Below, in pieces: positions 1-35,564 of a DNA stretch of 64,000 bases. Position 1 is the stretch's first letter, and every line of letters begins with the position of its first letter. The position numbers were made by a program, and so were the translations under genes. Source of the DNA: an uncultured Candidatus Saccharibacteria bacterium. Its GTDB lineage: Bacteria; Patescibacteriota; Minisyncoccia; Phycocordibacterales; UBA918. The notes below the pieces were generated by a model that was given only the letters and a program-made list of their open reading frames with translations, was not told the DNA's origin and did no database searches. The stretch spans positions 499-64,498 of the forward strand of contig CAZTWW010000001.1 in NCBI GenBank assembly GCA_964618165.1, given 5' to 3'.

Positions 1-3000
1 ATCTTATCCATACTGTCAATGGTGCAAACGAGCTCATACTCTGCGGAGTTGGTGCATGTGGTGATGCGCGACTTAAGATTAAGGCTGGCTCAACGTATCA
101 ACCGCTCACAAACAGTACTATTATTAATCTCCAAAATTACGGTCGACTAGCACTTGGTACTTCGACCTTGCGTGTAGCTGGTGCCTGGCAACAGTTAGGT
201 ACGTTTGTGACTGATACATCAACGGTAGTGTTTACCGCTACGTCTACGCCGTATACGCTCCAAAATGCGACTTCGTCGTTCTTCTTCCATAACGTGACTT
301 TTGGTGAGACGAGTGGTACTGCCACCTGGACTATCGATAAACCACTAAGTATCACTGGTACACTCAGCGTGATGCAGGGAACACTGGCGCGGGGTACTTC
401 AACGATGGCTATTGGTGGAAACCTGACGCTTGGTGCTAATGGTTTTGTGACTGGTATCGCGACGACAACATTTAATGGTACAGGCAGTAATACCTGGTCT
501 GATGCCAAGGCGAGTGCTTCAAGTACAAATGTCGGAAATGTCGTTATTGATGGTACGGCAAAAACCATTACGCTTGCAGGGAACGTGGCCGCTGAGTCAG
601 TTACTATCGGTACAGATGATACGCTTAACGCTTCAGGAAGTGGTTTTAACATTAATGTTGTTCGAGCCTGGACTAATAACAATCTTTTTGTTCCGCAGAC
701 TGGTACTGTTACTTTCATTGGGACTTCAACCGGTGTCATTGCTCGTGGCACCTCACCATTCAATAATCTTACCTTTGCGGGTGTTGGAGGAAATTGGTCA
801 TTTAGTACGTCAACTTTGGCGCTCAATGGTACACTCACAATTGCGACCGGTACGGTCACTCTACCGACTGGTACTACCACCATCGCCGGCTCTTTCCTCA
901 ACACTGGCGGGTCATTCGCACATAATAATGGTGAGGTACGTATGACAAGTGCTGTCGGCGGACGTACAATCACTCAACAGGCAGGTGTATTTACTAATGC
1001 CTTCTACGACTTAGTATTTACTGGCGGTGGTACTTGGAGTTATTCAGAAAGCGCAGCTACGACAACCCGTAATATGCTGATTCAGGCTGGTACAGTTACG
1101 CTCCCAAGTGGTCAGCTCACTGTCGGAGGTGAATTTGCAGTAACGGGTTCAGGCGCCTTTGCGCATAACAACGGTGAATTAGTGCTCCTTGTTACACAAA
1201 CCAACACACTGCGTACGAATGGTTCAGCGCTTAATAATGTTCGCACTCGTGGTGTCGGTTCGGGTTCATGGTACGGCTCAGGATGGGGAAGACGACTATC
1301 AATTACTGTACAAAGTTCGCAGGTACCAACCAACCTCTCTGACTTCCCGGTATACGTCAATCTCGCAAATCTCCCTGTTGAATTCTTTAATGGCGTCAAA
1401 GCTGATGGTGGAGATATTCGCATGACGACAAGTGACGGTGTCACTGAGGTGCCAGTAGAAGTTGTGTCGCTTAATACTGGGGCGAGAACTGGTGAATTGC
1501 ACTTTAGAGCTCCTTCGCTATCATCTACGACAAACTCAGTATTCTATATCTACTACAACAATCCAGCTGCTGCGACCAATACTGCTACTTCTACGTTTGG
1601 TCGCGCGAATGTGTGGAGTAATGGTTATGAGGCGGTGTACCACTTGGATACCAATCCTGCTTCTGCGATGCTTGACAGTACCCGCAATGCACGTAACCTG
1701 ACGCAGCTTGGTGGCATGAACAGCAGTGATGTGGTGGCTGGAGCAGTTGGAAATGGTATTGATTTTGACGGCGTTGATGATCGTCTTACTAACGCTGGCT
1801 TCGCCTGGCCAAATGCCTCTAACACCGTCACTGTGACAGCCTGGAATAATGTGACAGTGGCCGAAACAAAAGCTGCAAACCTCTTTGGATTCAATGAAAG
1901 TGGTGGTCAACGGTTTGCTACGCACGGACCATGGAGTGATTCAGTTTTGTATTGGGACTTTGGTACTGCAGGAGTACCAGGACGCGTGCAGACTGCGTAT
2001 AACTCATATCGCGATAAATGGACTCATGTCGCGCTCACTTCACCCGGTAACGGTGGAGGCAACATGAACATCTACCTCGACGGTGCATTTATTGCTGGCA
2101 GCGCTGCGAGTGATCCAACTGCCACCTTAACCGGATTTTTCCTTGGTAGCTTAGGTGCTGGACAATATCACGACGGTCGTATCGACGAATTCCGTATTGC
2201 CTCAGTTGTTCGCACCGCCGGTTGGATTGCTACTGAAGAGAATAATCAATCAAGCTCAACGGCGTTCTACACCGTGAGTGGAGAGGAGACGCAACGTATT
2301 CGCACGTTTGCTGATACAAATACAACTATCCTCGGCAATGTCGTCCTTGAAAATGGCGGTGATGCTATTTTCCCAAGTGGTGTACTGTCTGTTGGAGGTT
2401 CATTTGATAATAACGCTAACTTCACCTCAAATAATGGAACGGTGCGCTTCAATTCAATCGCTGGTAGTGAAACTATCGCTGCTGGATCATCAACCTTTGC
2501 TACCCTTGAGTTTAATGCGACTAGTGGAGACTTTGCTATTACCGAGCATGCAACAGCGACGGTAGCGGTTAATCTTGTGAATGCAGCAAGCTTTACACTC
2601 AGTAGCGGACTCTCGCTCACAGCGAGTGGCACCTTTACTCAGGTTATGTCTGGTGCAAGTACTACTTGGACTGGTTCGACGCTCCGTATCCTTGGTGCTG
2701 ATCAGACAATTCACGCTAAGACATTTGGTGGCGATGTCTACGGTACACTTGAGACCAACGGTGACACGGATGTGGCGATGTGGAACAGTAGTGCTACGAG
2801 CTATGTGACCGGTAGTACCTCATCTATCTATTCTCAAGATCATGCTGGCGTAGATGGAGACCTTAATATCTATGGTAATTATGTCCGGTCTACCGGTACT
2901 GAACACTGGTCGTGGGAGACTGACTTTGATGGTGTCTCGCTCGGCGTTGGTGCTCGTCAAGTCGATGTTCGTATTGCGACTGGTTCAACTATTGGATTTG

Positions 3001-6000
3001 TAAATGCTTCGTGGTCAATCCAAGGTACAACCTCAGCTACCACGACTGTTGCCAGTATTGCTGGAGCCTTTAGCGTGTCAGCTACTAATACTACCGTGAC
3101 CGGTCGATTCTTCAGCTTTGCCAATACGGATGCAAGTGGACTCCGACTCGTTTCATCAAGTACGGTGAGTGTGCTTGATGACGGTTTCTTCACAGTTGCT
3201 CCTGGTCAGACTGGTATTACGATGGATGGTACGACGGTCGGTACTAATCCAGCCAGACAGTTCAACCGCATTGGCTTTGCCACGACCACAGCCGGGGCTG
3301 CATCAAACGTCACCTTTACTGGTACGTCTACCACATTTGTGTGGTTCAGAAATGGTTCTGGTAATCTTTACGGAGAGGCGTTTGATGCTGGTGACTTGAA
3401 TCCGGGAGCCATTCGATTCGATGATAGTTCGTACCTCATCACGGTTTCTGGTCGTGTGCTTACCAATAATGGAAGTGGGGTACAAGGTGCACCAGTCTGT
3501 AACGGCACTACCCCAAATGTTCGTATTGTGGTTAACAATGGTTCGTTTACTGCTTCAACATCATGTAATGCTACGACGGGTGCGTATACATTTAACAACG
3601 TTGCATTCGTTGGTGATCCTGTGATCTCGGTATACCTCAATACCAATGGTGGCGTGCAGGGGAGTGTGGTGACAAAGACACCAACCGCCAACATCACAAA
3701 CCTCGATCTCTACACGAATCAGGTAATGATGCGACATGAGGGGGTCGTACCAATCGCAATTGCAGATCTTGTACAGTTTAATAATGCCTCTGACACTGAT
3801 ATGGGCTTTGTGGCAACGACGTCTCCAACAACAACACTGACGGTGTCTCCAGCACGTGGTTTGTTCATCTGGGCAAGTAGCACCTTCACGCCGGGTGGTC
3901 CAGTCACGCTCGCGGGTAATGCATCGACCAGTGCCTTTGAAGGATCACTCACGCTTGCTACTTCATCTCGCTTTATTGCTGAAGGCACGCAAACTCATAC
4001 CTTGGCTGGTCGCCTGGTGCTTGGTAGTAATGCCTCTATAACCGCTGCCTCCTCTACCTTTGTCTTTAATGCAACGACTACAGGCAAGAGTATCACCGGT
4101 TCAACAACTATAAACCTCCATAATGCATCCTTTACCGGGGTTGGTGGTGCCTGGAATATTACTGCACCGATTGTATTTACTGGTGACATGACGGTTGCAA
4201 CTGGTACCGTGACTGGTACAAGTAATCTGACCCTCACCAATGGTCAGCTTACCGGTAATGGAACACTTTCACTCGGTGGAGGTACAACTACTATTGCTCG
4301 CACTAATACACTTGGCGGTACGACACCTTGGACATTTGCGAATCTCGTCCTCGGCGATGGTTTAACGGTGGGTACAACCACCCGTGCTGCCAGCGCCACG
4401 ACGACGATTAGTGGACGCTTGACCATAGCAAATGCTCATACCCTCGCTGCTACGAGTGAAGCGTACGACTTTACTGGTACCGGTACGGTATTCCAAGTAA
4501 CTGGCACTTGGCAGCCAGGTTCAAGTCTCGTCCGCTACAGTGGAGCGAATGCTAATGTGCTCGGTACGAGCTACTATGACTTGTCTATCGGTGCGCTGGT
4601 AGGAAGTTCTACATTCACTGGTACAGGCTCTGGTATCCTCGTTGGTCGCAATCTCACCGTTGGTAACGGTACCGCGAGTAGTACCTTTAACGTGACGACA
4701 AGCGACCCAGTCGTAACCGTTCTTGGTGATGTTCTCATACAAAGTTCCTCAACATTGAGTGCGAGTGATATTGCGACCACTACAATTGCCGGTAGCTATG
4801 ACAACAACGGTCGATTCTTCGGTAATGGTGGCTTGGTGACCTTTACGGGTAGTGGATCACATACCATTGCTGCAGGCAGTTCGAGCTTGAGTCGTGTCAT
4901 CGTTGACGGTACTGGCTCGTTTACGCTGCCTGAGTCTGCTACAACAACCGTCAGTCTCATTCTCCAAAATCACAGTCTCTTTACGGTGGCAACCGGCACA
5001 ACACTCGCGGTGGCTGGCACTTTTGAGAACCGCCTTGGTGGTAGTGCCACTGTCTGGTCAGGTGCACTCTTTGCGCATGGTGGAGGCTCACTTACTATCA
5101 ATCAAAAGACTACGAGTGATGTGTACAGTACCTTGCGTGTTGCCAGTACGACTCGCGTGCGTATGTGGAATAGTACGAGTACCGTATATGATGCACAAGG
5201 CGGTATCTACTCACAAGATCATGCGGGTATTGATGGAGCGTTACGTATCTACGGTAACTTTAATGAAACCAGTGCTGCCGATCATTGGAGTTTTGAAACT
5301 GACTTCGATGGTACAACTCTTGGCACTTCTACTCGTCCAGTAACCGTAGCGTTTGCAAGCAATGCAACAGCTACCTGGAGTGGCGGTAGTCTCAGTGTTA
5401 TTGGAAGCACAAGTGCCTCTACAACCTTACAAAATCAAGGTTCCGGTACGTACCGGTTGGTGATTGGTGGCACTGCTACTGTTAACTTCAACCGGGTCGT
5501 TATCCGTGACACTACAGCTGCTGGTATCACCTTCACTGGTACTCCGACCGTGACCGATTTCTCACGTACTGACCATCTCATCAGAATCAATAGTGGTACT
5601 GCATTGACCGTAGGTGGTACGGTTATCAATGCGAACGAAGCGAAAAACTTTACGAATAATGTGTTTGCGCCTGATACCGGTGTCATTGGTGCAACGAACG
5701 TTACTGCTACTGGTACTGCAGTTAGTTCTTGGAGATTTACTAATCATACCGGCTCGATATCAGGTGAAGCATTTGATGTTGATCCAGCGGGTGATCCTGG
5801 ATACATCGTTTGGGATGATTCAGCGGCGCTGATTACCGTCAGTGGTAATGTGTACAGTGATGAGGGTGTTACCGTCTCACCAGTATGTGACGGGGTGACA
5901 AATAATATCGTTCTTCGGGTTGCTGGTTTGACTTCATATAGTACCAGTTGTAACGCGAGTACCGGTGCCTACAGCATCAGTAATGTTGCCTACAGTCCAC

Positions 6001-9000
6001 TTGATAGTCTCGTGGTCTATATTGATGGCGCGACACCAAAGGGTGCTCATGTCACGAAGTCACCAATTTCTTCAATCTCTAATCTCCACATTTACCACAG
6101 TCGAGTGATTGTCCGTCATGAAAATACCGACCCAATAACGATTGCTGATATGGCAGTATGGGATAGTAGTGATGATACAGATATTCCGTTCACTGCCGTA
6201 GATGCTGGTACTGATACATTGACGCTACCAGCTGACCGTAAGCTGATGGTGTGGACCAGTAAGACCTTTGCACCAAATGGTAATGTGACGATTTCTGGTG
6301 GCGGGGCAGGGGATGCGGTTGATGGTTCGTTTGAAGCCCTCGCTAATGCCCGTTTCCGTGGCCAAAACAGTGAGACACATACGATTGCCGGAAGCTTCGT
6401 CTTTGGTGCTGGTGCTGTCTATGAGGCTAATCAAGCAACCACAACATTCACCTCAACGGCCGCCGGACGTACTATTGATGTCAACGAGTCAGCGTTCGGG
6501 AATATCGCATTCACGGGTACTGGTTCATGGTCTATGAGTGATGCCACGCTCACGACACAACGCTCATTTACCCAGTCAGCAGGAACCGTAACGTTCGGTA
6601 GCGGCACGACCACAATCGGCGCGTCGTTCAATGCAACCGGCGGAACATTTACCATGAATGGAAGTGCACTTGTCTTTACGAGTACGAGTACCGGTAATAT
6701 TGTTCGGTTTGATGACTCAACTGTTCCAACCACCACGTTCTCGGGTGCGAGCGGTGCTTGGAGTATGACTGACACGAACGCGACGACAACCGGTAGCTTC
6801 TTTATCACCAACACCGGTGCGGTGACACTACCGAGTGGTAATCTTGGTGTGGGCGGTTCATTTGTGAACGCGAGTGGTACCGTGACGCATAATACGAGTG
6901 ACATCTATTTCACTGGTGCCGGGACACTTAGTTTGCGTGCTAATGGCTCCGACCTGTTTGCGGTTCGGAAGATTGGGGCTGGCACACTAACGATGACTGA
7001 GGGTAGTGTAACGCTCCGCGATGATCTGGCGGTAGCTTCGGGTACACTCATTGCTGCTACTAATACCTTGGCTGTCGGTGGTTCATTTACGGTAACGAAC
7101 GGCTTCTTTAATAATGCGACCGGTACGGTTCTTATGAATGCCACGACTGTTGGTAAGACGATTCAGGCCAGTACCAGTCCGTTCTATAACCTTAACTTCG
7201 GTAGCGCTTCAGGTGGCTGGACTTGGCAGAGTAATGCAACGGTTACGAATAATATGACAATTACCGCTGCAAACACCTTTACGAAAGAGTCTGGTACAAC
7301 CCTTACCGTTGGTGGTGTCTTTACCAATCTTGTTGGTGGTGCGCAAACGACCTGGAGTACTACGACGCTCCGGCTTATCGCCACCGATCCGTACACCATA
7401 AATACCAAGTCTGCTGGTGGTGATGTGTATGCTACCGTTGATATTCCATCGGCCGATATTCGAGTCTGGAATAGTAGCTTCAGTACCACTACAACGGGTC
7501 TCGGTGCATCACTCTATTCACAAGACAATGCAGCGGTTGATGGTCAGTTGGCTATCTATGGTGAGTTTACCGTTGCGACAACTACTGAACACTGGAGCTT
7601 TGCAACTGATTTTGACGGCACTGCCCTCACTGGCCCAAGTCAGCGCGCCGTATCAGTACTTTTCGCCTCAAGTGCTACCACGTCGGTTATCTCCGGTACC
7701 CTCAATGTAATTGGTGGTCCGTCGGCGACAACAACTATTGGCATTATTGGTACTGGTACCCACGCCCTCGCCGTATCAGGAGGTACCTTTAACGCCCAGT
7801 TCTACCGCTTCAATGCCCTTAATGCTACCGGCCTTTCATTCACTGGTTCTCCAACGATTACTACGTTGAGTAACGGTTTCTATCAGCTTGCGGTGAATGG
7901 CGGTACGCTTGTCCGCGTCACCGATACGGCACTTACCGCCAATGCATCAAAGATATTTACGGCAGTAGGATTTAATGCGACGAGTGGCTTGAGTGGTGTA
8001 AACGTAGCCCTCGTGGGTAGTACCAGTAATGCGTGGCGATTTAGTGGCTCGTACGGCACGCTCAGTGGTGAGGCGTTTGACGATGATGGTGTTGATGCCT
8101 GCGGCGCGATTCGCTTTGATAATAGTCTTTGTCTCCTTACCTCACAAACAGCTTTCCGTTGGCGCAGTGATGATGGGCTTGAAGGGGCGCCAAGTAGTGA
8201 ATGGTTTGATGCCTCATTTGACTACCGACAGCGTGTCCGTGTCCAAAACACAACCGGTACATCATTTAGCACAACCACACTGAAGATAGTTGTTCCGTAT
8301 GATAGTGCGATGCAATCGGACTTTGATGATATTCGCTTTACACTCGGCAATGGCTTGACCTTGGCTGATCACTGGCGAGAGCGGTTTACCGCGAGTACCG
8401 AAGCTACATTCTGGGTGGAGGTACCAAGCTTTGCGGCCTCATCTTACACGACTGTGTTTATGTATTACGGTAGTTCAACTGCAAGTTCAGCCAGCAATGC
8501 GAGTGCAAGCTTCGTCTTCGTGGATGACTTTGAAGACAATAACATTACAGAATATTCGGGCGATACTTCATTATTCCAGACTGATACGGCACCGGTATTT
8601 GCTGGTACGTATGCGCTTGAGGCATCAAATAAAACTGGTCGTACGACTGATGGTATTTACCGAACTGGTTCACTCGTCTCTCAGGGTCAAATCGTCCGCT
8701 ATATGCAGTACGTTGATACCACATCAGGTAGTACTGACGAGGGTTGTGTCATGTTTGGTGTTCAGGGTAACCAAAACCAGAATTATGGTGTGTGTCTTGA
8801 ACTCTTTGGAGTTGACCGTATCGCATTATCACGTGACGTTGACGATAATGATGTGTCAGGTACTGTCCTGGCGAGTACCACAGTGTCGTACACTACAGGT
8901 TGGTATGAGGTACAAATAGATTGGCAAACTAATAATCGTATTGATGTCTATCTCTATAATCCTTCAGGCGCATTGGTGGCTACTACCTCGGCCACCGACA

Positions 9001-18742: not shown

Positions 18743-18763
18743 AGTCTATTAATTACCTCCATC

Positions 18764-18802
18764 TTCTTTGTTGTACTTCGGTAAATTGTCGTTCACCGTA
18801 CA
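18764..18802 (+). repeat. Conserved post-gene element TTCTTTGTTGT-N-GTTCACCGTACA (copy 2)
   Basis: Lies 22 nt after the stop of the dockerin gene. It aligns with 11923-11959. Confidence 0.6.
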
Positions 18803-19647: not shown

Positions 19648-19675
19648 TTGATATACAACAGTGCCAGGCTAATAC
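19648..19675 (+). promoter_or_regulatory. Candidate sigma70-type promoter for the 385-aa gene
   Basis: TTGATA, 16-nt spacer, TAATAC, then 12 nt to the ATG at 19688. Confidence 0.35.
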
Positions 19676-19687
19676 AACGTAGAGAAC

Positions 19688-20881: not shown

Positions 20882-20910
20882 TTCCCCCCACCACGGGGGA
20901 TTTTTGTTTG
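20882..20910 (+). terminator. Intrinsic terminator after the 385-aa gene
   Basis: Hairpin TCCCCCCA-cca-CGGGGGA followed by TTTTTGTTTG. Confidence 0.8.
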
Positions 20911-25168: not shown

Positions 25169-25177
25169 TGGTATTAT
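25169..25177 (+). promoter_or_regulatory. Extended -10 element TGGTATTAT upstream of the 25219 gene
   Basis: TGnTATTAT lies 41 nt upstream of the ATG, with TTGACA immediately upstream but too close (9 nt) to serve as its -35. Confidence 0.3.
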
Positions 25178-25218
25178 ATGTGTACTGGAACTGTTGTATC
25201 ACCATCAGTCCAATTACG

Positions 25219-26757
25219 ATGAAACAAATACCAGCCCATACACAAAAAGTAACACTCACTACAGTGAGGCAGCCAATTGGTCTTTACCGTTTGGTATTTC
25301 AGAGTGTGTGGTCAAGTTTGTTCGTCATTCTCCTCATCACCTCTTTCTTCCTTCAGACATTTGAGCGAGCGCTCGCAAATGAAGTTGTCGAAGAGTCTGC
25401 TACTTCGCTGTCGCCACTCATTACTGACGACTTGATAGAAAGAGTTGAATCAGATGCGGTACCGATTGCGATAGAGCGTGCAGAAACACCAACAGAAGAT
25501 GTTCTGATACCACCAGAGATAACCGAAGCTGAACCGGTTAATCAACCGGATCCAACGACTATTCCGATTGATACTTCACCACCGCCACCACAGATTGAAG
25601 ATGGTAATTCAGTACCCGAATCGCCTCCTGATATAGGCACTACAACGCTTGACGAAACTCTGACAGAGGAAATCTCTCCAGAGTCTTTGCTCGTAGATAC
25701 TGGTACAAGTACGCCGACTCTGACCGTCGAAAGCGATCAAATGATTCAGTTTAATAAAAATAATTGTGTAGCCGTTGAGGATGGCTCATTCTACTGTCAA
25801 AAAGCCTCTACCTCGGTAGCGGTGGCAGATGAAGGCCTCTATAGTCTTCCGGACGCTGATGGTGATCTTGAGATTTACCTGAAGCGTGCTGGTGAACTTA
25901 CCCAGCTGACACAGAATACTGTTGATGACGCGTCACCGTATTACGATCCTGCATCAGATACGATTGTGTGGCATCGTGTTATAGATGAGCGGTATCAGAT
26001 CATGGTTATGGATGTAGCCTCTGGTGAGGAGACACAGCTTACCGATACTTCGACTAACAATATGGAGCCGTTTCGTTCGGATAACATAATTGTGTGGCAG
26101 CATTGGGAGAATAATGCCTGGCAAATTATGTTCTTTGATGGACAGACCATTGCTCAACTTACCGACACTGTTGAACACAATCTTGCACCGGTCGTCCGTA
26201 ATGGCTTGGTAGTTTGGCATCGAATCACGAATGGTGTGAAGACAATTGAGGTCTACGATATTTCCACCGCCTCCTTTATGACTATTGAAGATGAGGGTGG
26301 TGGAACGGTTACTAATCCGCGTATGGTGCTTGTGTTTGATTCGACTATGGATAACGGTGATACTGTGACAAAGGGCTATGACCTTGTCACAGGTGAGATT
26401 ACTGAGTTTGAAGCAGAACCAGCCCCACTACCAGAAGAAATTCCAACTCCTGATCCAATTGAGGAAGCGAGGGCACTAGTCCAGTCAAAGTCGACTGGTC
26501 GTGAGTCTGGTGAAAATATTGACACTGATTTAACTGGTTCTACAACGCCGATGATTGATCCGCCTATAGATGCCGTGACGTCAAGTTCAAGTTTCACAGC
26601 CGGAACAACATTAACACTTGACCTGAGTTCAGCGACGTCAAGTATAGTGACAGAGTTACCACAGGTAGCACCACTCCCTGCAGATTATATTACTGATGTT
26701 GTGATACCTCCGTATCAAGCGACATCTTCTCAGGATATCGATACTGTGGTGGAGTAG
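25219..26757 (+). CDS. Membrane-anchored protein (513 aa) with acidic Pro/Glu/Thr-rich linker and beta-propeller-like repeats (TolB/PD40-like)
   Basis: I chose the internal ATG at 25219. TM helix LFVILLITSFFL. An acidic linker of about 120 aa. Repeats of the form '..IVW[HQ]...~...QI...D..~G...QLTDT....~P.....' occur 4-5 times. Confidence 0.6.
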   Translation: MKQIPAHTQKVTLTTVRQPIGLYRLVFQSVWSSLFVILLITSFFLQTFERALANEVVEESATSLSPLITDDLIERVESDAVPIAIERAETPTEDVLIPPEITEAEPVNQPDPTTIPIDTSPPPPQIEDGNSVPESPPDIGTTTLDETLTEEISPESLLVDTGTSTPTLTVESDQMIQFNKNNCVAVEDGSFYCQKASTSVAVADEGLYSLPDADGDLEIYLKRAGELTQLTQNTVDDASPYYDPASDTIVWHRVIDERYQIMVMDVASGEETQLTDTSTNNMEPFRSDNIIVWQHWENNAWQIMFFDGQTIAQLTDTVEHNLAPVVRNGLVVWHRITNGVKTIEVYDISTASFMTIEDEGGGTVTNPRMVLVFDSTMDNGDTVTKGYDLVTGEITEFEAEPAPLPEEIPTPDPIEEARALVQSKSTGRESGENIDTDLTGSTTPMIDPPIDAVTSSSSFTAGTTLTLDLSSATSSIVTELPQVAPLPADYITDVVIPPYQATSSQDIDTVVE

Positions 26758-26826
26758 TTTCTCTACAATAAAAGCGTGGTCTCGTAACCCTGAACGTGCG
26801 AGAATAAAGGCATGTGGAGGTTTCCC

Positions 26827-29800
26827 ATGTCTTTTTTCTGTGACTGCAGGCGACCAGTGGCTTTGCTGTTGCTGGTGGTGACGTTTGGTCTCAATCTCAC
26901 TATTCTTGAGTATGTGACTTGGCCACAGTTCGCTGAGGCAGCGGTTGTAACGGTTGATGCCACCGTAAGTCTCGATGCTAACGCCTTTTTCTTTGGTGGC
27001 TCACAAACAGTTTTCGTTTCTGATCAGGTGGGGTATAAGTTTTATCCTGATAGTACCGGGCAGTGTGTGTATAGTAAAACCACTAATGGTGCAGTGAGTT
27101 GGAATACTCCTGTTATTGTGGATGCGCAGACTGACTGCGCCAGTATTTCTGTATGGTATGACCAGTGGACACCAAATGATTACGGTACTTATATCCATAT
27201 CGCAACTATGGATACAGCTGCTGCAACCGATCGTCTTTACTACAATCGCCTCGATACCACCAATGATTCATTACTCCTTGGTACTACTCCAGTGGTGACG
27301 AGTAGTAACTCAGGCCAAGGCGGTACGTTTGTGTCTGGTACCAATAGCGTAACTGTTACAAAGAGTACCAGTAATGAAGTGTTCATGGCTGTCTCAGATG
27401 CAACTGATTCGTTTGTGGTTCGCTGTTCTACAAACTGTAACTTGACCACTGGCTGGACCGAAGCGGGGACGGCCTTTATGGACCTTGATAATGATTGGAA
27501 TATACTCATGCCCGTTTCATCTGGCGGTGTACTCCTCATTAACCGCGACATTAGCCTTGATGATATCAGATCACGCTTTTGGAATGGTTCGTCGTGGTCA
27601 GTGAGTTGGACTAATGTCGATACGAATGCAGTAGAGAATGCGACCTATGACGTGAGTATGGCAGCGGTAATTGATCATACCAATGGCGACATTTATCTAG
27701 CCTATGGAGCCGATCACGATAACTACACGACCCTCGACCACGACATCCGTACGGCTAAGTTTTCTTCTGGATCTTGGACTGGTACGACAGCTGTGTTTAC
27801 TAATCGTGCGCTCCGTGGACTCCATACCGTTGCGATTGCACTTGATACCAATACGAGTACTGTCTATGTTGCATACATCCTCCGCACGACACCAGGCACC
27901 GCGACGACCGGTAACGTGTACTGGGCTACATCTACCTCAGCAATGTCTGCCTGGAGTGCAGAGCGTGGACCAGTTAATATCACCGCTGGAGATCTTCGTG
28001 GACTTGACCTCAACCTCATGAGTGATGAGCGTATCTATGTGACGTGGCAGGACCCGGCTCCAGACGATATCTTTGGTGAAACTTTAGCAGATATTGCACC
28101 AATAACGAAGTTGACTGCAAGTGGTACCCCAAGTACGACCATTGTTGCGAGTACCAGCAATGCGTATGTGGGTGGTAAGTTTGTTATACGTGAGAGTGTC
28201 ACAAGTCGTAATTTGACCGATATACTCTTTACTGAACGTGGGACTATAGCGGCTGATACAGCGCTCGCAAATGTGCGCTTGCGCTATGACCTTGATACGA
28301 CCGCGCCATATGATTGTGCGAGTGAGTCATATGCTGGTACCGAACCACAATACGGCCTTACCGATACCGATGGCTTCTCAAGCACTAACGGTACTGTCTC
28401 GTTTGCTGGGCTCGTGAATATTTCTCCAACCCAAGCCTTTTGTGGGTATGTTGTACTCGACGTGCTTGATAGCGCCCTTGATGGAGATACGCTAGCGATA
28501 TCTGTTGAAACGCCGAATACTCACGTACTGGTGACTGGGGGTGTACTCGTGTCTCCAGCTGGTCCAGTTCGGTTTGCGACTTCAACCTTAATTCAAAATG
28601 ATGAGTTGACCCAAACCAGTTACCATTGGCGTAATGACAATGGTACTGAAGCTGCGGCTACCTCAGCTACTGGTGGTATAGCGAATACTCCGATTGCTGC
28701 GATTCTTCCTAATGTACCCCGTCGACTTCGTCTTCAGGTCTCAAACGAGGGTAGTCTCACGAGTCCAGCGACCGCCTTTCGTCTTGAGTATGCAGAGGCT
28801 ACTCCAACCTGTGATGGAGCAACTGGATGGACAGACGTTGGGGCAACGAATGATGCCTGGAATATGTCACTCTCAGCTAACCTCACTGAAGGAGCCAATA
28901 CAACCAATATCGCAGTGGCAACTGGAGGTGTGGCTGATGAGAATACTACTTTCCTGACCCCGAACGGTGGTGTTCGAGAGTCCTCGTCTCAAACTGGTTC
29001 ATTGACGTTATTAAACACTAACTTTGTTGAACTTGAGTATTCTATCGTGGCGTCAACCTCAGCCTCTGAGGGGTCGACGTACTGTTTTCGAGTTACCAAT
29101 GCCGGAACACCTCTGCCGGTATATACCCAGTATCCGGCTGCTACCATTGCGGCGGACGTGTCGGTCTCTGCCAGTGGCACCCAAGCGACATCACTTGTAA
29201 TTCCTTCAACGGTACAACATGTTGGAGGACAGTTTGTACTTCGTGAAAATACCAGTAATCGTAATATTACGAGTATTATGATTACAGAGAATGGTACCGT
29301 TGACGGTGCTGTTGGTTTAGATAACATCCAGCTCCGCTATGATCTTGATACCACCGCACCGCAAAACTGCGCGAGCGAAACCTATGCTGGTACTGAGGCG
29401 CAATTTGGAGTAACTGATACAGATGGATTTTCGGGTGCTAATGGTACGTCAACCTTTACGGGTACATTAGCGGTTTCAACTACTTCCACCGTCTGTCTCT
29501 ATGTGGTATTTGATGTAACCGGCTTGGCAGTAAATGGTGAGACGGTACAAATCGAAATTAATTCACCGGCGAACGATGTACAGGTGAGTACCGGTTCGGT
29601 GTCACCATCTACACCAATAGCACTCGCTGGTACGACAACGCTTGCTGGTGCGGTGATGACCCAAACTGGCTACCATTGGCGTAATAATGACGGTGGTGAA
29701 GCTACTTCGACTTCTGCCACAGTAGGGACAGAAAACACTATATTAACAGAGCATCTTGCGAACAGCCCAATCCGTCTTCGTTTAGCACTCTCAAATGAAG

Positions 29801-32800
29801 GTGCTGCTACATCTGTTGCATCCACCTACCGTCTTGAGTTTGGTCCACGGGTAACAACGTGTGATGCAGTGAGTGTCTGGACACCGGTCGGTGATGCGGC
29901 TGATGACTGGAATATGTTTGATTCGCCAGCGCTCATTAATGGTGCAAACACGACAAATATCGCTGTCGCTACTGGTGGAGTTACTGATCCAAATCCCACA
30001 TTCATTGTTGCTAATTCCGGTGTTCGTGACACTACTTCCACATCGTCGAGTCTCACTATCAGTACGACCGAATTTGCTGAGCTTGATTTTAGTATTACCT
30101 CGACGAATATCACCGCCTTTAATACAACCTATTGTTTCCGACTCACGGCTGAGGGTCGTCCGCTTCAGACCTATACACAGTATGCGCAACTCACGACCGC
30201 ACCGAAGCGTGACTACAAAGTGCAACGGGGTGTGACGGTGGTCGCGGGTCTGACGCAGACACTTACGGCTGGTGTTGATTACACTGCACCGAGTGCGTCA
30301 TCAACCGCATTTGTGCGCATTACTGATACGCATCATACCCCGCCAGGACGCACCACTGCTGGTGGTGGTGCACAAAACGCTGACGACTACACGGCCTACA
30401 TCAGTAATCCAACGAATATCACCACAAGCTTCACTATCTCGCGCCCACCAGCAGCGACGGGTAACACTCGCGTGACCTGGGAAATAGTCGAGTTTATTGG
30501 TGATGCTGGTACGGATAACGAAATGATTGTTCGCGGTGGTGGTGCAGTGAACTTTGCCTCCGCATCGACGAGTGCAACTGGTACGACAGTCTCTGGTATA
30601 GCCGATGATGCTGATGTGGTCGTCTATATCACTGGAATAGAGAACCGCGATATCGCGCGCAACCTCTTTTATGCACAGCAAGTGACCGCTGAGTGGGATG
30701 CGACAAATGATAGACCAATCTTTCGTCGTGGAGCCGGTGGAGCGATTATTAATGTTAGCTATGCGGTGGTTGAGTACACGGGTATAAACTGGCGCGTGCA
30801 ACGGGTCGAGCATACGTATGCCTCATCGACTGTAGTAGAGACAAAGCCAATCGATCCAGTAAATAGCTTAGCTCGTACCTTTATTCATACCCAAAAGCGC
30901 ATGGGGGCACTTGGTAACGTCAACAACTTTGGTCACGAGGTCTGGTTATCGAGTATAGGACAAGTGTCGTTCAATCTTGAACCAGCAGCTACTACTCCAA
31001 CTGGCCATGTATCGGTAGCGTGGGTAATTGAGAACCAACAAACGAGTGCTGGTGCCATGAAAGTGCAGCGTACCAATGGTACGACAAACGCGGGCACTGA
31101 GCCGGTAACACTAAGTATTTCACTCTTTACTCCGATTGAGTCAACTAATAATGCATCTATCTTCGGTATGTCGCGAGTAGTTGGTGCGAACACTAACTTC
31201 CCGCTTGTAAATGCTGGTCTTCGTATTACCGGCACCTCTACGTTTGAACTGTGGCGTAGTGAGGCTTCCGCTGAAATGACCTACCGAACAGAGGTGGTCG
31301 AGTGGCCAGTGAGTGGGCTTGCAGTGCGCCAAAACTACTATCGTTTTTATGTTGATAATAATGCACTAACGCCAGCTGATCCATGGCCACCTGGTCCTGT
31401 TGATGTTGGTGAAAATAGTCCGATTACGGCACTTGATGAACCACTTGGCGAGAGTGAGGTTGTGCGCCTCCGAATGTCACTACGAGTAGCTAACGCTATT
31501 TTGCCTGCTGGTCTTTATGATTTTAAACTACAATACGGCCTCCGAGTGACGTCTTGTAGTAGTGTCGGGACCTGGACTGACCTTGGTGCAGCCGGTGGTT
31601 CTGGTGCATGGCGCGGCTACGCTGCTACTGGCACTACCGATGGCACAGCACTCAGTATTAATCCACCTGATAGTGGCGACTTGCTCATTTCTGTCTCAGA
31701 TAGAGCTGGTAGTCTTGAGGAAGAGAATCAAAGTCCAGCTAACCCATATTTGGTTAACCCAGGAGAGGACCTCGAGTATGACTGGTATGTGCAACATAAC
31801 GGAGCGCTTTCTCGTAATACATACTGTTTCCGCATGGTTCGTAGTGATGGAACTCCACTCGATGGCTACCTCAACTATCCGCAGCTTCGTACTGCTGGGT
31901 ACGCACCTCAAACTAAAAATTGGCGCTTTTACGAAGATGCAGAACTTGAGACACCACTTTCACCACTATCTAGTGAAAATATCTCACCAATTGAAATTCA
32001 AAATCAAAACGTGATTGCACTTCGTGTGACGGTCGGTGAACGCAAGAATGTAACTGGGCAGAATGTGAAGTTCCGATTGCAATACGATGAAGATCCGAAC
32101 TTCACCAATCCAAAAGAGTTAGCAGCTACCTCGACCTGTACTGCTACCTCCACCTGGTGTTATGCCGATGGTGGTGGGGTAGATAATGCGACGATTACCA
32201 CTAAGGTGCTCTCAGACGCCGATTCATGCACAGCATCAGTTGGTAATGGCTGTGGTACGCACAATGAGAGTCCAACGTTTGTTCCAGGCTTTACCCATCA
32301 GCCAAGTGCCAATAAAGAGTTTGCCTTTTATATCCGTCATGCGGCTGCTCGTGCTGGTGCGGTCTACTACTTTAGACTGTATGAAGTGTTTGAAGACGTC
32401 CCTGTCCCGGTCGCGAGTGGGGAAGTTACACCAAGTCTCGTGGCAGAGACAGCTAAGCTCACACTTACGATTAATGGGCTTCCAAGTGGTACCACGACCG
32501 CAGGTATTACGACTACTGCTTCCTCAACGCCATCAACGGTGGCATTTGGCTCACTGCCGCTCAATACCGATGTGTATGCAGCGCATCGGATTGCGGTGAC
32601 GACGAATGCCACGGAGGGCTATCGGGTATTAGCATTTGCTCGGCAACAGCTCCTTAATGTGTATGGTACAGCGATTCCATCGGTGACCGGTACTAATGCG
32701 GTACCAACTGCGTGGTCGGTCGGTTGTAGTTTGAGCGCGTCTGGTTGTGTTGGGTACCACGCAACTGATGCTGTCCTTTCTGGCGGCTCAACCCGCTTTG

Positions 32801-32970
32801 CGGCACTTGATACGTATGCCGGACTTCATACGACACCGGCTGAAGTCATGTACAACCCTATACCAGCGAATGATGTTCATGATATTGTATATCGAGTTCG
32901 CGTTGGATCGACCCAGCCGGCAGGTAATTACGAAACCGAAATCGTCTATATTGCTATCCCTACCTACTAG
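26827..32970 (+). CDS. Giant surface protein (about 2,048 aa) with N-terminal BNR/Asp-box-like beta-propeller, repeated modules of about 170 aa shared with the 3,412-aa protein, and the WxL-like C-terminal domain
   Basis: GGAGG sits 6 nt before the ATG at 26827 (the ORF track lists 26812). Signal anchor VALLLLVVTFGLNL. BNR-like motifs S.T.NGAVSW and FSSGSWTG. The module motifs 'YHWRN[DN][DN]G...RLRL..SNEG...YRLE[YF]...C....W..VG...W......T.....TNIAVATGG........ELE[YF]SI......YCFR' occur at least twice in full, plus two more divergent copies. C-terminus ...NYETEIVYIAIPTY. Confidence 0.85.
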   Translation: MSFFCDCRRPVALLLLVVTFGLNLTILEYVTWPQFAEAAVVTVDATVSLDANAFFFGGSQTVFVSDQVGYKFYPDSTGQCVYSKTTNGAVSWNTPVIVDAQTDCASISVWYDQWTPNDYGTYIHIATMDTAAATDRLYYNRLDTTNDSLLLGTTPVVTSSNSGQGGTFVSGTNSVTVTKSTSNEVFMAVSDATDSFVVRCSTNCNLTTGWTEAGTAFMDLDNDWNILMPVSSGGVLLINRDISLDDIRSRFWNGSSWSVSWTNVDTNAVENATYDVSMAAVIDHTNGDIYLAYGADHDNYTTLDHDIRTAKFSSGSWTGTTAVFTNRALRGLHTVAIALDTNTSTVYVAYILRTTPGTATTGNVYWATSTSAMSAWSAERGPVNITAGDLRGLDLNLMSDERIYVTWQDPAPDDIFGETLADIAPITKLTASGTPSTTIVASTSNAYVGGKFVIRESVTSRNLTDILFTERGTIAADTALANVRLRYDLDTTAPYDCASESYAGTEPQYGLTDTDGFSSTNGTVSFAGLVNISPTQAFCGYVVLDVLDSALDGDTLAISVETPNTHVLVTGGVLVSPAGPVRFATSTLIQNDELTQTSYHWRNDNGTEAAATSATGGIANTPIAAILPNVPRRLRLQVSNEGSLTSPATAFRLEYAEATPTCDGATGWTDVGATNDAWNMSLSANLTEGANTTNIAVATGGVADENTTFLTPNGGVRESSSQTGSLTLLNTNFVELEYSIVASTSASEGSTYCFRVTNAGTPLPVYTQYPAATIAADVSVSASGTQATSLVIPSTVQHVGGQFVLRENTSNRNITSIMITENGTVDGAVGLDNIQLRYDLDTTAPQNCASETYAGTEAQFGVTDTDGFSGANGTSTFTGTLAVSTTSTVCLYVVFDVTGLAVNGETVQIEINSPANDVQVSTGSVSPSTPIALAGTTTLAGAVMTQTGYHWRNNDGGEATSTSATVGTENTILTEHLANSPIRLRLALSNEGAATSVASTYRLEFGPRVTTCDAVSVWTPVGDAADDWNMFDSPALINGANTTNIAVATGGVTDPNPTFIVANSGVRDTTSTSSSLTISTTEFAELDFSITSTNITAFNTTYCFRLTAEGRPLQTYTQYAQLTTAPKRDYKVQRGVTVVAGLTQTLTAGVDYTAPSASSTAFVRITDTHHTPPGRTTAGGGAQNADDYTAYISNPTNITTSFTISRPPAATGNTRVTWEIVEFIGDAGTDNEMIVRGGGAVNFASASTSATGTTVSGIADDADVVVYITGIENRDIARNLFYAQQVTAEWDATNDRPIFRRGAGGAIINVSYAVVEYTGINWRVQRVEHTYASSTVVETKPIDPVNSLARTFIHTQKRMGALGNVNNFGHEVWLSSIGQVSFNLEPAATTPTGHVSVAWVIENQQTSAGAMKVQRTNGTTNAGTEPVTLSISLFTPIESTNNASIFGMSRVVGANTNFPLVNAGLRITGTSTFELWRSEASAEMTYRTEVVEWPVSGLAVRQNYYRFYVDNNALTPADPWPPGPVDVGENSPITALDEPLGESEVVRLRMSLRVANAILPAGLYDFKLQYGLRVTSCSSVGTWTDLGAAGGSGAWRGYAATGTTDGTALSINPPDSGDLLISVSDRAGSLEEENQSPANPYLVNPGEDLEYDWYVQHNGALSRNTYCFRMVRSDGTPLDGYLNYPQLRTAGYAPQTKNWRFYEDAELETPLSPLSSENISPIEIQNQNVIALRVTVGERKNVTGQNVKFRLQYDEDPNFTNPKELAATSTCTATSTWCYADGGGVDNATITTKVLSDADSCTASVGNGCGTHNESPTFVPGFTHQPSANKEFAFYIRHAAARAGAVYYFRLYEVFEDVPVPVASGEVTPSLVAETAKLTLTINGLPSGTTTAGITTTASSTPSTVAFGSLPLNTDVYAAHRIAVTTNATEGYRVLAFARQQLLNVYGTAIPSVTGTNAVPTAWSVGCSLSASGCVGYHATDAVLSGGSTRFAALDTYAGLHTTPAEVMYNPIPANDVHDIVYRVRVGSTQPAGNYETEIVYIAIPTY

Positions 32971-32971
32971 T

Positions 32972-33958
32972 ATGAAAGCACTACTCATCTGTCTCGCACT
33001 ATTTATTACCGTACCGCAGTTTGTATTGGCAAACAGTTATAGTGTGACACCGCTTGTGATAGAGCGCGATGTGTCAGCGCGAGACATGCTCGAGGAGACC
33101 ATTAAGGTGACCAATACTGGCACGGTACCGGTGAAGATATTTCCGTCGGTCAATGCCATTACGCTTGGTGAAGATGGTTCGATTGAGGAGTTTATTGCGC
33201 CGGTTATGACCGATCAGACGACAAATGTTGCAAGTTGGCTCGCTATCTCTCGCGCTCGGATAGAGCTTGCTCCCGGTGAAACGAAGCGTATCCCACTTTC
33301 AATTACCATCAATCCCCAGGCAGTTCCGGGTGAGTACTATGCGCTTATTGGGTTTGGGAGTGGCGATAAGCGTGATGAAGCAGAGGCTGCAGTCATGGCA
33401 GGTCGCGCACCTGGTGTGACGGTCCGTCTCGCGATAGCTGATAAGAAAAACGAATACCTTCGACTGCATTCATTTGTGGTCGACCGCTTTGTCACCAATC
33501 CAGCTGAGAGCCTCGTGCGCTACGAGCTTGAAAATATCGGGGACACCCCAATATCACCAAAAGGTGAGATTATTATTTACGATGTGCGTGGTAAGGAGGT
33601 TGGAGCAGTATCCGTAAATGATGCTGGTGAAGTACTCGAGCCGAGTACTCGTCGAGAGTTTTCAGCAACACTACCCGCTACCGGTATTTATGGTCGTCAC
33701 AAAGCTTTTCTTAATCTTGAGTATGGTAGTACCCAGCGAGCAAATTTGTACGACACTACCTTTTTTACCGTAGTACCGATTCTTTATATTATGATTGCCT
33801 TTGGGGTGCTCCTCTTAACCACCCTTATACTCACGCTTTTGTATATCTTTAAGCAGCGTCGACACCATCATGTCGATGATGAGTCAGTCGCAATGTATAT
33901 CCGCGATGGGGTTCATAGTGATCTAAAAGACCATGACATCAATCTTAAACACAATTAA
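32972..33958 (+). CDS. DUF916-like cell-surface protein (328 aa), paralog 2, with C-terminal TM anchor and His/Arg-rich tail
   Basis: The ATG at 32972 lies 2 nt after the stop of the giant gene. The ORF track's alternative start at 32747 would overlap 226 bp, so I rejected it. Signal peptide ALLICLALFITVPQFVLA. The motif 'APGETKRIPLSITINPQAVPGEYYALIGF' is paralogous to 'PPQQTATIPLQVNVPDNAAPGGHYAAVLIG' in the next gene. C-terminal TM helix FGVLLLTTLILTLLYIF followed by KQRRHHH. Confidence 0.7.
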   Translation: MKALLICLALFITVPQFVLANSYSVTPLVIERDVSARDMLEETIKVTNTGTVPVKIFPSVNAITLGEDGSIEEFIAPVMTDQTTNVASWLAISRARIELAPGETKRIPLSITINPQAVPGEYYALIGFGSGDKRDEAEAAVMAGRAPGVTVRLAIADKKNEYLRLHSFVVDRFVTNPAESLVRYELENIGDTPISPKGEIIIYDVRGKEVGAVSVNDAGEVLEPSTRREFSATLPATGIYGRHKAFLNLEYGSTQRANLYDTTFFTVVPILYIMIAFGVLLLTTLILTLLYIFKQRRHHHVDDESVAMYIRDGVHSDLKDHDINLKHN

Positions 33959-35564
33959 ATACTCGTTAGTCGCTATTTGTATAGGGATACCGTTTTACAC
34001 GCTTGCGCAACAACCAGACACGCAAACACTCACGGTGTCACCAACACTGTTTGAAATGCGGGCCGAGCCAGGTCAGGCCTGGACGAGTGAGCTCCGCGTC
34101 ATTAATGCCAATAATTATGAAATTACGGTATACCCAGAGCCGGTAAACTTCGCACCACTTGGTGAAGATGGTCGAGGTGACCTCATCCCTATCATGAGTG
34201 AAGAAACTGGCGGTCAAACGCTTGCTGAGTGGATCACGGTACCTGTCGAACCGGTTGTAATCCCACCGCAACAAACGGCCACCATACCGCTTCAGGTGAA
34301 TGTGCCGGATAACGCTGCTCCTGGTGGACACTACGCCGCCGTCCTTATCGGTACAAAGCCTCCAACAGAGGGTCGGCAAGCATCACAGGTTCAGACTGCA
34401 CAGTATGTAACCTCACTATTCTTTGTTCGTGTTGCGGGAGATGTGCGTGAGGTGGCTGATATTCGTGAGTTTACAACTGAGCCCTCGGTTGTCCAACGTC
34501 CTGAGGTGACACTCTCGCTTCGGTTTGAAAACACGGGTAATGTCCACGTACAACCCCAGGGAGATATTAAGATTTTAAATATGTGGGGACAGGAGCGAGG
34601 TCTTATTCCAATCAATCATCAAACCCACTTCGGTAATGTCCTACCTGATAGTGTTCGAAAATTTACATTCACCTGGAAAGGGGATACAGCACTTTATGAT
34701 ATTGGTCGTTACAAAGCGGTGGCAACACTGGGGTATGGCGTTGAAGGCAAGCAATTTGTGACGAGTACGACATACTTTTGGATTATTCCGTACACGACAA
34801 TTTTCCTCACGATTATTCTTGTGGTGGCAGTTATTAAAATCGGTGCGTGGCTCATTCGTCGATACATCGAGCGCATGCTTGCCCTCTCAGGAGTTTCTCC
34901 AGACACACGTCCATATGTACCACAACATATGCGTACTGGTACACTAGATTCGAAGACTGTTGTCATGCGTGGCAATTCTTATCAACGAGCAACGGCACCG
35001 GTGCGTGCGGGTTTCCTTGATATCCTGAAATCATGGCAAGCGGGAACTACCGTTAAGATGCGCCTCAAGTCACTCTTCCGTACGCTTCGTCATTACGCGA
35101 AGCTAATAGGAGCCTTCATCGTTGTGCTGCTAGCCTTTGTGGCAATTACCTATGTCATCGCGAGTATTATGAAAGAAGACACGCACTTTGAAGTTGCTAT
35201 CAATAGTCCTGGAGCCGACGTGGTTATGTCATCTGAAGAAATCTCATACAACGAGTTAAAGCTAGACGAAACATTCCCAGAAGAAAAAATAGCCACACCA
35301 CCAATTACCGTTGTAAACGCGAGCGGCAAGGTGGGTGCTGGTGCTCGTACGCAGATCGCTCTTGAGAAGGCTGGCTATAGCGTCTACGATCTTGATACTG
35401 ATGAGAGTCGCCAAGATGAGCGCACGATAATCGTGTACTCTGCTAAGGATCAAGAACTGGCACTGACGCTTAGCCGTCTCCTGACTGGAGCACTCCTCTC
35501 GGCACGTGAAGGTGAGGAGAATAGTATTATCATCTATGCTGGGAGCGACAGCCTCTCACGCTAG
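33933..35564 (+). CDS. DUF916-like protein (543 aa), paralog 3, with two TM helices and a C-terminal LytR_C-like domain
   Basis: Overlaps the previous gene by 26 nt. Signal peptide LVAICIGIPFYTLA. DUF916-like ectodomain. TM1 IIPYTTIFLTIILVVAVIKIGAWLI. TM2 LIGAFIVVLLAFVAITYVIASI. C-terminal segment VVNASGKVGAGARTQIALEKAGYSVYDL...TIIVYSAKDQELALTLSRLL, which resembles the LytR_C domain of LCP proteins. Confidence 0.7.
   Translation: MTSILNTIKYSLVAICIGIPFYTLAQQPDTQTLTVSPTLFEMRAEPGQAWTSELRVINANNYEITVYPEPVNFAPLGEDGRGDLIPIMSEETGGQTLAEWITVPVEPVVIPPQQTATIPLQVNVPDNAAPGGHYAAVLIGTKPPTEGRQASQVQTAQYVTSLFFVRVAGDVREVADIREFTTEPSVVQRPEVTLSLRFENTGNVHVQPQGDIKILNMWGQERGLIPINHQTHFGNVLPDSVRKFTFTWKGDTALYDIGRYKAVATLGYGVEGKQFVTSTTYFWIIPYTTIFLTIILVVAVIKIGAWLIRRYIERMLALSGVSPDTRPYVPQHMRTGTLDSKTVVMRGNSYQRATAPVRAGFLDILKSWQAGTTVKMRLKSLFRTLRHYAKLIGAFIVVLLAFVAITYVIASIMKEDTHFEVAINSPGADVVMSSEEISYNELKLDETFPEEKIATPPITVVNASGKVGAGARTQIALEKAGYSVYDLDTDESRQDERTIIVYSAKDQELALTLSRLLTGALLSAREGEENSIIIYAGSDSLSR

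Follow-up and report, generated by a model that had tools for sequence, protein, structure and literature searches.

What is built by the 16 co-directional genes that lie on the plus strand at positions 1-35,564 of a 64,000-nt stretch of DNA (termed here the window; contig CAZTWW010000001.1) from an uncultured Paceibacteria bacterium of the Candidate Phyla Radiation (CPR)? A first-pass annotation had proposed an undescribed surface complex, in which four proteins share a WxL-like C-terminal domain of the kind that attaches non-covalently to peptidoglycan. The follow-up reported here points to another answer: the locus probably encodes a pilus resembling the Pam pilus of CPR bacteria, assembled by donor-strand exchange without an usher, with giant adhesins as subunits and with chaperones similar to WxLIP, the partner of WxL proteins. 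All the open reading frames (ORFs) of that annotation were recovered at their coordinates on the plus strand.

The Pam pilus system of Ca. Mycosynbacter amalyticus comprises PamA, PamB, PamC, PamD, PamE, PamT and PamR, and electron cryo-microscopy (cryo-EM) of its filaments revealed that a subunit's C-terminal domain is completed by the linker of the subunit next to it, with no usher taking part (bioRxiv 10.64898/2026.03.03.709456). The same work found that the linker and the C-terminal domain are the most conserved parts of PamA and PamB (PDB 25PZ and 25QA), that PamC and PamD are PapD/FimC-like chaperones retaining a C-terminal transmembrane (TM) helix, and that the system also has PamT, a tip pilin of one domain, and PamR, a TM terminator resembling RbmA (bioRxiv 10.64898/2026.03.03.709456).

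In the present locus, the comparison with Pam begins with four proteins whose C-terminal domains (CTDs) form two families, CTD-A and CTD-B (positions are those of the window; Ig, immunoglobulin; HMM, hidden Markov model; aa, amino acids):

19688-20845, plus strand: g385, candidate major pilin with a signal peptide
Within g385, plus strand: N-terminal β-sandwich, aa 38-185; linker, aa 186-198 (nt 20243-20281); Ig-like CTD-B, aa 199-385
26812-32970, plus strand: g2052, giant adhesin-like protein with a linker-like 'TPSLVAE' just before its CTD-B
32452-32967, plus strand: CTD-B of g2052, aa 1881-2052 (BLASTP to g385, 1.5e-9; NF058581, 8e-6)
3-10406, plus strand: g3467, giant secreted protein truncated by the window start, with DUF2341 (3.7e-19)
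9888-10403, plus strand: CTD-A of g3467, aa 3296-3465 (CTD-A HMM, 2e-51; BLASTP to g624, 5e-16)
14711-16585, plus strand: g624, 'small' CTD-A protein with a signal anchor and Cys-rich Ig-like domains
16013-16582, plus strand: CTD-A of g624, aa 435-624 (BLASTP and HMM)

Composition-corrected BLASTP aligns the CTD-A proteins g3467 and g624 over 293 aa with 31% identity (5e-16), and the CTD-B proteins g2052 and g385 over 168 aa with 33% identity (1.5e-9). Between the pairs, however, BLASTP gives no match, and the HMM of neither family detects the other at E<10. The idea of one C-terminal domain in four proteins has thus to be replaced by that of two robust families, and the 'IP..EQR[FY]AT' block once ascribed to all four C-termini occurs only in the g3467/g624 pair. 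The CTD-A family amounts to 1,204 representative clusters, which are without annotation and which no curated family matches; the domain is C-terminal in all of them, in proteins that range from 550 to about 3,400 aa. Because the ORF of g3467 runs past the window start, its length can be given only as at least 3,467 aa; the protein is giant, as had been claimed, though the earlier figure of at least 3,412 aa was too low.

The connection with Pam comes through CTD-B. The sole curated family that matches it is NF058581 ('CPR_Pam_pilin_C, Pam pilus system pilin subunit'), for which g385 scores 27.6 bits (2.5e-6) against a curated cut-off of 55 bits. The C-terminal domain of g2052 scores 26 bits (8e-6) and aligns with profile positions 3-148 of 148, right up to the stop codon. 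The same family is matched by 48 of 51 members of the g385 family, the best at 3.9e-8, and by 7 of 10 paralogous pilins from the compact modules described below, in six cases from end to end.

Monomer models of g385 and g328 were made with AlphaFold2 (AF2). That of g385 (predicted local distance difference test, pLDDT, 82.5) has a signal helix, some ten β-strands in aa 41-185 and a nine-strand C-terminal domain in aa 199-383, between which aa 186-198 are unstructured. In this linker, SPVVVTAAVDTSF, hydrophobic residues alternate, and the most conserved windows of the g385 family are aa 372-385 (the last strand), 188-203 (the linker) and 328-341; a Cys pair, C108 and C128, is conserved too. In g2052 and its relatives, a [TY]PS[LV]V[AT]E segment that resembles the g385 linker precedes the C-terminal domain. 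In its predicted structure, g385 has the pilin architecture of the Pam type: its conserved linker joins a β-sandwich to a C-terminal Ig-like domain. Searches turned up more than 2,600 homologues of g385; with g385 as the query, phmmer and profile searches of PDB sequences retrieved nothing relevant from copies of the PDB that did not contain the PamA/B entries 25PZ and 25QA.

The pilin gene is flanked by non-coding features of its own:

18743-19687, plus strand: non-coding gap of 945 nt between g368 and g385
19415-19687, plus strand: conserved upstream region of g385, with a promoter-like TTGTGT...TACAAT and then a leader of about 215 nt
20883-20900, plus strand: terminator-like GC hairpin and T-run, 38 nt past the g385 stop codon

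About 270 nt upstream of g385 are conserved like coding DNA, with around 80% identity to four relatives. The 60 pairs that RNAalifold predicts for seven leader sequences include 15 with compensatory changes, and Rfam gives no match to the leader at the gathering score. The leader may be a structured 5' untranslated region that controls or stabilises the pilin mRNA, and the hairpin beyond the gene looks like an attenuating terminator that would separate the pilin from the genes downstream. In the same gap, an intergenic element that follows g368 (window 18743-18865) recurs twice, again between genes, in each of two related loci (L009, 1385-1461 and 8920-9031; L011, 1931-2008 and 9082-9204), and a similar motif, cgaatt(t/c)tcgcgagt..., can be seen twice by eye within window 18743-18990.

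If g385 is a pilin, which proteins would be its chaperones? Three genes are candidates:

16678-17631, plus strand: g317, WxLIP-like paralog 1, with a signal peptide and a C-terminal TM segment, directly 3' of g624
32972-33958, plus strand: g328, WxLIP-like paralog 2, with a signal peptide
Within g328, plus strand: Ig domain 1, aa 23-155; Ig domain 2, aa 163-267; TM helix, aa 270-297
33933-35564, plus strand: g543, WxLIP-like paralog 3, with an additional TM segment and a C-terminal LytR_C (1e-9)

The first-pass annotation had described these as three DUF916-like paralogs, two of them immediately downstream of a gene with the C-terminal domain, and each part of this description holds. g328 and g543 are related at 1e-23 (BLASTP), and g317 matches the HMM of the g328 family at 2e-8; all three are two-Ig proteins with a C-terminal TM segment. 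In the AF2 model of g328 (pLDDT 89), a signal peptide precedes two Ig domains, and the TM helix occupies aa 270-297. Foldseek places first, among PDB structures, 9i25_C, 'WxLIP from E. faecium locus A bound to long WxL' (1.9e-11), and also finds 9i1y; after the WxLIP structures come RbmA, in third place, and the chaperones CfaA (1.4e-9) and CsuC (1e-7) of chaperone-usher systems. At the level of sequence, the g328-family profile ranks EfmWxLIP1 first among PDB sequences (0.0046). Eight WxL loci from enterococcal, lactobacillal and lactococcal plasmids served as the WxL/WxLIP reference, and hhalign aligned the g328 family with their WxLIPs at 97.4% (E 1.2e-11) over 274 columns, which take in both Ig domains and the TM helix. 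PF06030 (WxLIP_PGBD) is matched by g543 at 27.4 bits, for a cut-off of 27.3, and by 40 of 61 members of the g328 family. These three proteins are clearly full-length homologues of the Firmicute WxLIP (DUF916-DUF3324-TM), although the locus proteins gave no hmmscan match to PF11797 (DUF3324) at E<=1. In NCBIfam, no Pam-chaperone model was matched by the g328 family.

Two further observations concern these proteins. In g543, aa 385-539 comprise the second TM segment and LytR_C, an extension that phmmer did not find in most g543-like genes of the compact modules. A conserved N-terminal strand of the g328 family, Y-S-V-T-P-L-V-I-E, resembles by eye the linkers of g2052 (V-T-P-S-L-V-A-E) and g385 (I-S-P-V-V-V-T-A), a likeness that would fit a chaperone strand mimicking the donor strand.

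How general is this arrangement? Scanning one genome per GTDB species brought up 137 relatives of g385, and the analysis kept 80 loci. The remaining genes of the window locus, some with the number of these loci in which they recur, are as follows (ABC, ATP-binding cassette):

10416-11903, plus strand: g495, secreted, with at least three FN3-like domains (fn3, 2e-21; Pur_ac_phosph_N, 2e-25); syntenic in 37 loci
12117-13439, plus strand: ABC ATPase (ABC_tran, 6e-32) with a long C-terminal extension; syntenic in 41 loci
13443-14651, plus strand: MacB/FtsX-type permease with four TM segments and an extracytoplasmic MacB_PCD
17636-18742, plus strand: g368, secreted, with a dockerin at the C-terminus, an Ig-like domain and Cys-rich repeats of the DUF4215 type; found in 60 of 80 loci, the compact module included
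20956-21975, plus strand: g355, with a cohesin-like N-terminal domain, a second β-domain, a C-terminal TM helix and a basic tail
21972-23690, plus strand: g572, which combines a cohesin with Big_13 Ig domains and has a TM helix and a coiled tail in the cytoplasm; found in 67 of 80 loci and also in the compact module
23692-24375, plus strand: g227, with an N-terminal TM segment and then a coiled coil; syntenic in 47 loci
24372-25130, plus strand: g252, with a cohesin-like domain and a dockerin/EF-hand-like C-terminus
25180-26757, plus strand: g525, membrane-anchored or secreted, with TolB-like β-propeller repeats and Pro/Thr-rich flanks

Some 50 of the 80 loci keep a 14-16-gene order, g3467-g495-ABC-MacB-g624-g317-g368-g385-g355-g572-g227-g252-g525-g2052(-g328-g543), and the 16-gene order persists in about 50 species down to around 50% pilin identity. 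About 25 loci (among them L063, L065-L067, L069-L075, L077-L080, L082 and L084-L087; for example L066, 9899-11035) have instead a compact paralogous module of four genes, for a pilin, a g543-like chaperone, a g368-like dockerin protein and a g572-like cohesin-TM protein. This module, which coexists with the large locus in some genomes, may be the minimal functional unit. Most compact modules are without ABC genes. A chaperone-like gene lies immediately 3' of 41 CTD-A genes, where it is of the g317 type, and of 25 CTD-B pilin genes.

Every non-cytoplasmic product of the locus opens with a hydrophobic signal or anchor segment, and no LPxTG motif occupies a sorting-signal position in any of its proteins, in agreement with the first reading of the sequence. 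An LPATG at residue 234 of g328 was considered as a sortase signal and was rejected because it is internal and poorly conserved; the Pfam matches of the locus include no sortase. The MacB-type transporter recognised at first sight is confirmed by ABC_tran (111.5 bits), FtsX (1e-17, 64.7 bits), MacB_PCD (2e-17, 64.6 bits) and the four TM segments, and so are the cohesin and dockerin genes, since Cohesin in g572 (36.7 bits for a cut-off of 24.1) and Dockerin_1 in g368 (23.6 bits for a cut-off of 22.9) both exceed the Pfam gathering scores. g355 and g252 are related to the cohesin region of g572 (BLASTP, 1e-13 and 1.5e-10), and the dockerin of g252, at 20.9 bits, falls just under the cut-off. g572 is a candidate membrane anchor. 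The start of g355 is probably the called ATG at 20956, which gives 339 aa, and a Pfam scan of g227 gave no family.

The nearest database proteins come from metagenome-assembled genomes of Parcubacteria/Paceibacteria, and pilin genes identical to g385 are present on metagenome contigs. Downstream, window 35607-51639 holds housekeeping genes (for a redoxin, an AI-2E family transporter, PGA_cap, tRNA-guanine transglycosylase, UvrB, UvrA, a UvrC-like protein, D-Ala-D-Ala ligase and tRNA-Ala(TGC)), so the surface locus ends at about 35.6 kb. Further on, a patch of low G+C content at window 54000-56550 (0.395 against about 0.49) contains at 54691-56550 a Schlafen-group-3/DUF2075-type helicase gene (PF09848, 8.7e-92), which is possibly a horizontally acquired gene of the defence type.

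The following mechanism could account for the gene content of this operon-like locus. Sec would export all the subunits, each with its N-terminal signal or anchor sequence, and each subunit would terminate in an incomplete Ig-like domain, CTD-B in g385 and g2052 and CTD-A in g624 and g3467. After export, this domain would be capped by a β-strand of a membrane-anchored two-Ig chaperone of the WxLIP/PamC/D kind; gene adjacency suggests that g317 would serve the CTD-A proteins and that g328 and g543 would serve the CTD-B proteins. The conserved hydrophobic linker of the next subunit (the aa 186-198 segment in the case of g385) would then displace the chaperone strand, and repeated exchange would yield a g385 polymer as the shaft. 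The giant proteins would join through the same acceptor domain as adhesive and probably distal subunits. The TM-anchored cohesin proteins g355 and g572 and the dockerin proteins g368 and g252 would probably tether or decorate the fibre, and the MacB-type ABC transporter may provide extracytoplasmic mechanical work.

Several results weigh against this pilus. All the NF058581 scores, at 16-28 bits, are well under the 55-bit cut-off, and by the curators' rule the CTD-B proteins are not members of the family but a sister group. For the CTD-A members, searches against NF058581/NCBIfam gave 0 matches out of 21 and 0 out of 49. The two CTD families are not significantly similar to each other by hhalign (P=0.02-0.05), and 21 decoy β-domain families from the same loci score as high. 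The window contains no CTD-only protein that would correspond to PamT, and in the locus no PamR-like terminator was identified with confidence. Pam pilins have, moreover, been reported mainly in Saccharimonadia and Microgenomatia, with no mention of cohesin, dockerin or ABC genes (bioRxiv 10.64898/2026.03.03.709456). As to the terminator, RbmA is the third-best fold match of g328, which means that one of the g317/g328/g543 paralogs could act as PamR, as could the TM-anchored g355 or g572. As to the two domain families, they align collinearly when diverse alignments are used; I-x-[YF]-G-x-L pairs near the start and, at the end, [WY]G[IV]xV..aGxYxGxNTF pairs with VGYxVEIs..AGdDYtATLTY. A shared ancestry of CTD-A and CTD-B is plausible.

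Are these C-terminal domains, as first thought, WxL domains? The tests made here do not support membership. A Pfam scan of all 16 proteins found no WxL (PF13731) and no DUF3324 at E<=1, and an HMM built from 15 plasmid-borne WxL proteins (--max) did not bring the ORFs with a CTD to the top of 3,890 CPR ORFs. A phmmer search of the PDB with the C-terminus of a large WxL protein did not retrieve the WxL chain of 9i25. By hhalign, CTD-B is collinear with WxL over 129 columns (P 0.002-0.006, score 25-26), a score reached by 0 of 60 column shuffles (z ~7, trimmed alignments). However, apparently unrelated domains in the panel of 21 β-domain families score 20-23, and homology of CTD-B with WxL is therefore not claimed. 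CTD-A is also collinear with WxL, at P ~0.03, which is not above the decoys. The motifs pair as IPFG with dFG, GfvVTV with GWtLt, and DYtATLTYvATP with YstTLtWxLxxxP, Tyr or Phe standing in the C-terminal domains for the Trp of WxL. A 'WxL domain-containing protein' of an Enterococcus mundtii plasmid (L008, 6901-11424) has 1,507 aa, which shows that very great length also occurs among large WxL proteins.

Even so, the locus might build a surface complex of the WxL type that does not polymerise: the CTDs would bind peptidoglycan non-covalently, the WxLIP-like proteins would hold them, the giant N-termini would be monomeric adhesins, and no filament would form. We consider this unlikely, though it is the main rival of the pilus. 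The chaperone-like proteins are bona fide WxLIP homologues over their full length, and the WxL/Csc clusters of Bacilli combine a WxLIP with a small protein and with a large one that carries the domain at its very C-terminus (PMC1534035, PMC9772566, PMC10599100). The window has two such triads, all secreted and with the TM-anchored WxLIP gene adjoining (g3467, g624 and g317; g2052, g385 and g328/g543), which is the build of a minimal WxL cluster (PMC9772566, PMC10599100). The first and last motifs of both CTDs resemble, collinearly, WxL motifs 1 and 2. LytR_C in g543 is a domain named for LytR cell-envelope-related proteins, and the D-Ala-D-Ala ligase gene indicates that the organism makes peptidoglycan. 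Against a wall complex stand the failure of PF13731 and of the WxL HMM to single out the CTDs, the similar hhalign scores of the decoys and the fact that Firmicute WxL proteins, searched against NCBIfam, do not match NF058581, whereas the one significant family match of CTD-B is to a pilin domain whose strand exchange was seen by cryo-EM. Nor would pure anchoring give a role to the hyper-conserved hydrophobic linker of g385. The locus differs from WxL/Csc clusters also in its host, which is outside the Bacillota, in chaperones without the NQIDKxxxY insert of the WxLIP PGBD domain, in having no small LPXTG protein, and in a small protein that adds an N-terminal β-sandwich and a conserved linker, features typical of pilins that polymerise. 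The pilus and the wall complex do not wholly exclude each other, since a strand is also inserted when WxLIP binds WxL: AF2 and the deposited complex 9i25 put a WxLIP strand in the WxL domain (PMC10599100). The two models would converge if strand complementation were at work in WxL systems too.

A quite different role for the CTDs would be that of export or sorting tags, like the CTDs of the type IX secretion system or tags of the PEP-CTERM type, read by the MacB-type ABC transporter or another envelope machine, with the two-Ig TM proteins as unrelated receptors. The strictly C-terminal position of the domains, in some 1,200 clusters of proteins of 550-3,400 aa, and the synteny of the ABC transporter in about 40 loci would suit such tags. 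Yet the compact modules of pilin, chaperone, dockerin and cohesin mostly do without ABC genes, the CTD genes tightly adjoin those of chaperone-like proteins, and the homologies with WxLIP and with the Pam pilin CTD favour strand complementation over a cleaved tag, all of which makes this explanation very improbable. Finally, low complexity might produce the C-terminal likeness, the locus being a chance cluster of surface-protein genes, inasmuch as Ser and Thr make up 20-26% of the proteins and comparisons across the two families are not significant. This is hardly credible. Within each pair, the similarity is far above what Ser/Thr composition would give, as the composition-corrected BLASTP values attest; both families have invariant aromatic, Gly and Pro columns, and the 16-gene order is kept in about 50 species. 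As regards both the similarity inside each pair and the unity of the locus, this explanation is already refuted.

How close, then, is the proposed pilus to Pam itself? Both have CPR hosts and a pilin that starts with a signal peptide and a β-sandwich, which a conserved linker connects to an Ig-like domain at the C-terminus; g385, at 385 aa, is in the size class of PamB (38.7 kDa), and both have paired cysteines. The chaperones are alike in having two Ig domains and a C-terminal TM helix, PamC and PamD being compared here by their description, and the locus, like Pam, is without an usher, a sortase or type IV machinery. It differs in its scores of at most 28 bits for NF058581, in a host from the Paceibacteria rather than the Saccharimonadia or Microgenomatia, in giant subunits (2,052 and at least 3,467 aa) that bear the acceptor domain, and in a second CTD family, unseen by NF058581, with a chaperone paralog of its own. 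It also differs in having neither a PamT-like single-domain tip protein nor a clear PamR, in cohesin/dockerin proteins and a MacB ABC transporter that are integral and syntenic, and in that the ATP-synthase neighbours are not seen here.

With the chaperone-usher pili (Pap/Fim, CFA/I with CfaA, Csu with CsuC), the proposed pilus would share the two-Ig chaperone fold, the donor-strand principle and an adhesin that ends in a pilin (acceptor) domain, as FimH and PapG do. The differences are that here there is no outer membrane and no usher, that the chaperone is membrane-anchored, that the donor strand would be an internal linker instead of an N-terminal extension, and that no sequence homology is detectable. 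The Cohesin of g572 and the Dockerin_1 of g368 recall the cellulosome, with membrane-anchored cohesins like anchoring scaffoldins, but the locus has no carbohydrate-active enzymes, and these modules lie within a pilus-like locus and in its compact form.

Since the Pam system of CPR bacteria, with its NCBIfam family NF058581, is the closest described relative, to call the present system undescribed was too strong, and this relationship moves the likely mechanism from peptidoglycan anchoring to polymerisation by donor-strand exchange. What is new is the Paceibacteria lineage, the giant acceptor-domain subunits, the second CTD family with its own chaperone, the cohesin-dockerin and ABC modules, and the explicit homology of the chaperones with WxLIP. 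The Pam preprint mentions neither WxL nor DUF916 (bioRxiv 10.64898/2026.03.03.709456), and in the literature nothing was found to join 'WxL' with 'donor strand' beyond single passing mentions in a 2013 review. One may tentatively ask whether Pam, this locus and the WxL/WxLIP complexes are branches of one ancient, usher-independent donor-strand system of monoderm-type envelopes, with membrane-anchored chaperones, in which WxLIP would be the chaperone and WxL, CTD-A and CTD-B divergent acceptor domains; we regard this as a real possibility, if somewhat less likely than its contrary. Were it true, the Firmicute WxL proteins would be strand-complemented and possibly polymerised instead of simply wall-bound, the CTD-A family, with its roughly 1,200 clusters, would be a second, unannotated acceptor domain of pilins and adhesins, and such fibres could have new accessory modules in the cohesin-dockerin proteins and in the syntenic MacB-type ABC transporter.

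Paceibacteria are among the most abundant of the CPR lineages and among the least understood, notably in the way they attach to hosts or surfaces. A 16-gene locus present in at least 50 species would extend the Pam-like strand-exchange fibre well past the classes in which Pam pili have been reported, and adhesins of several thousand residues attached to such a fibre would be concrete candidates for host contact. In CTD-A, the analysis defines a large, un-annotated family of C-terminal domains. The presence in one locus of pilins with the Pam signature beside homologues of WxLIP links two literatures that do not cite each other, and from it follows a testable prediction for the assembly of the WxL virulence and adhesion clusters of enterococci, listeriae and lactobacilli.

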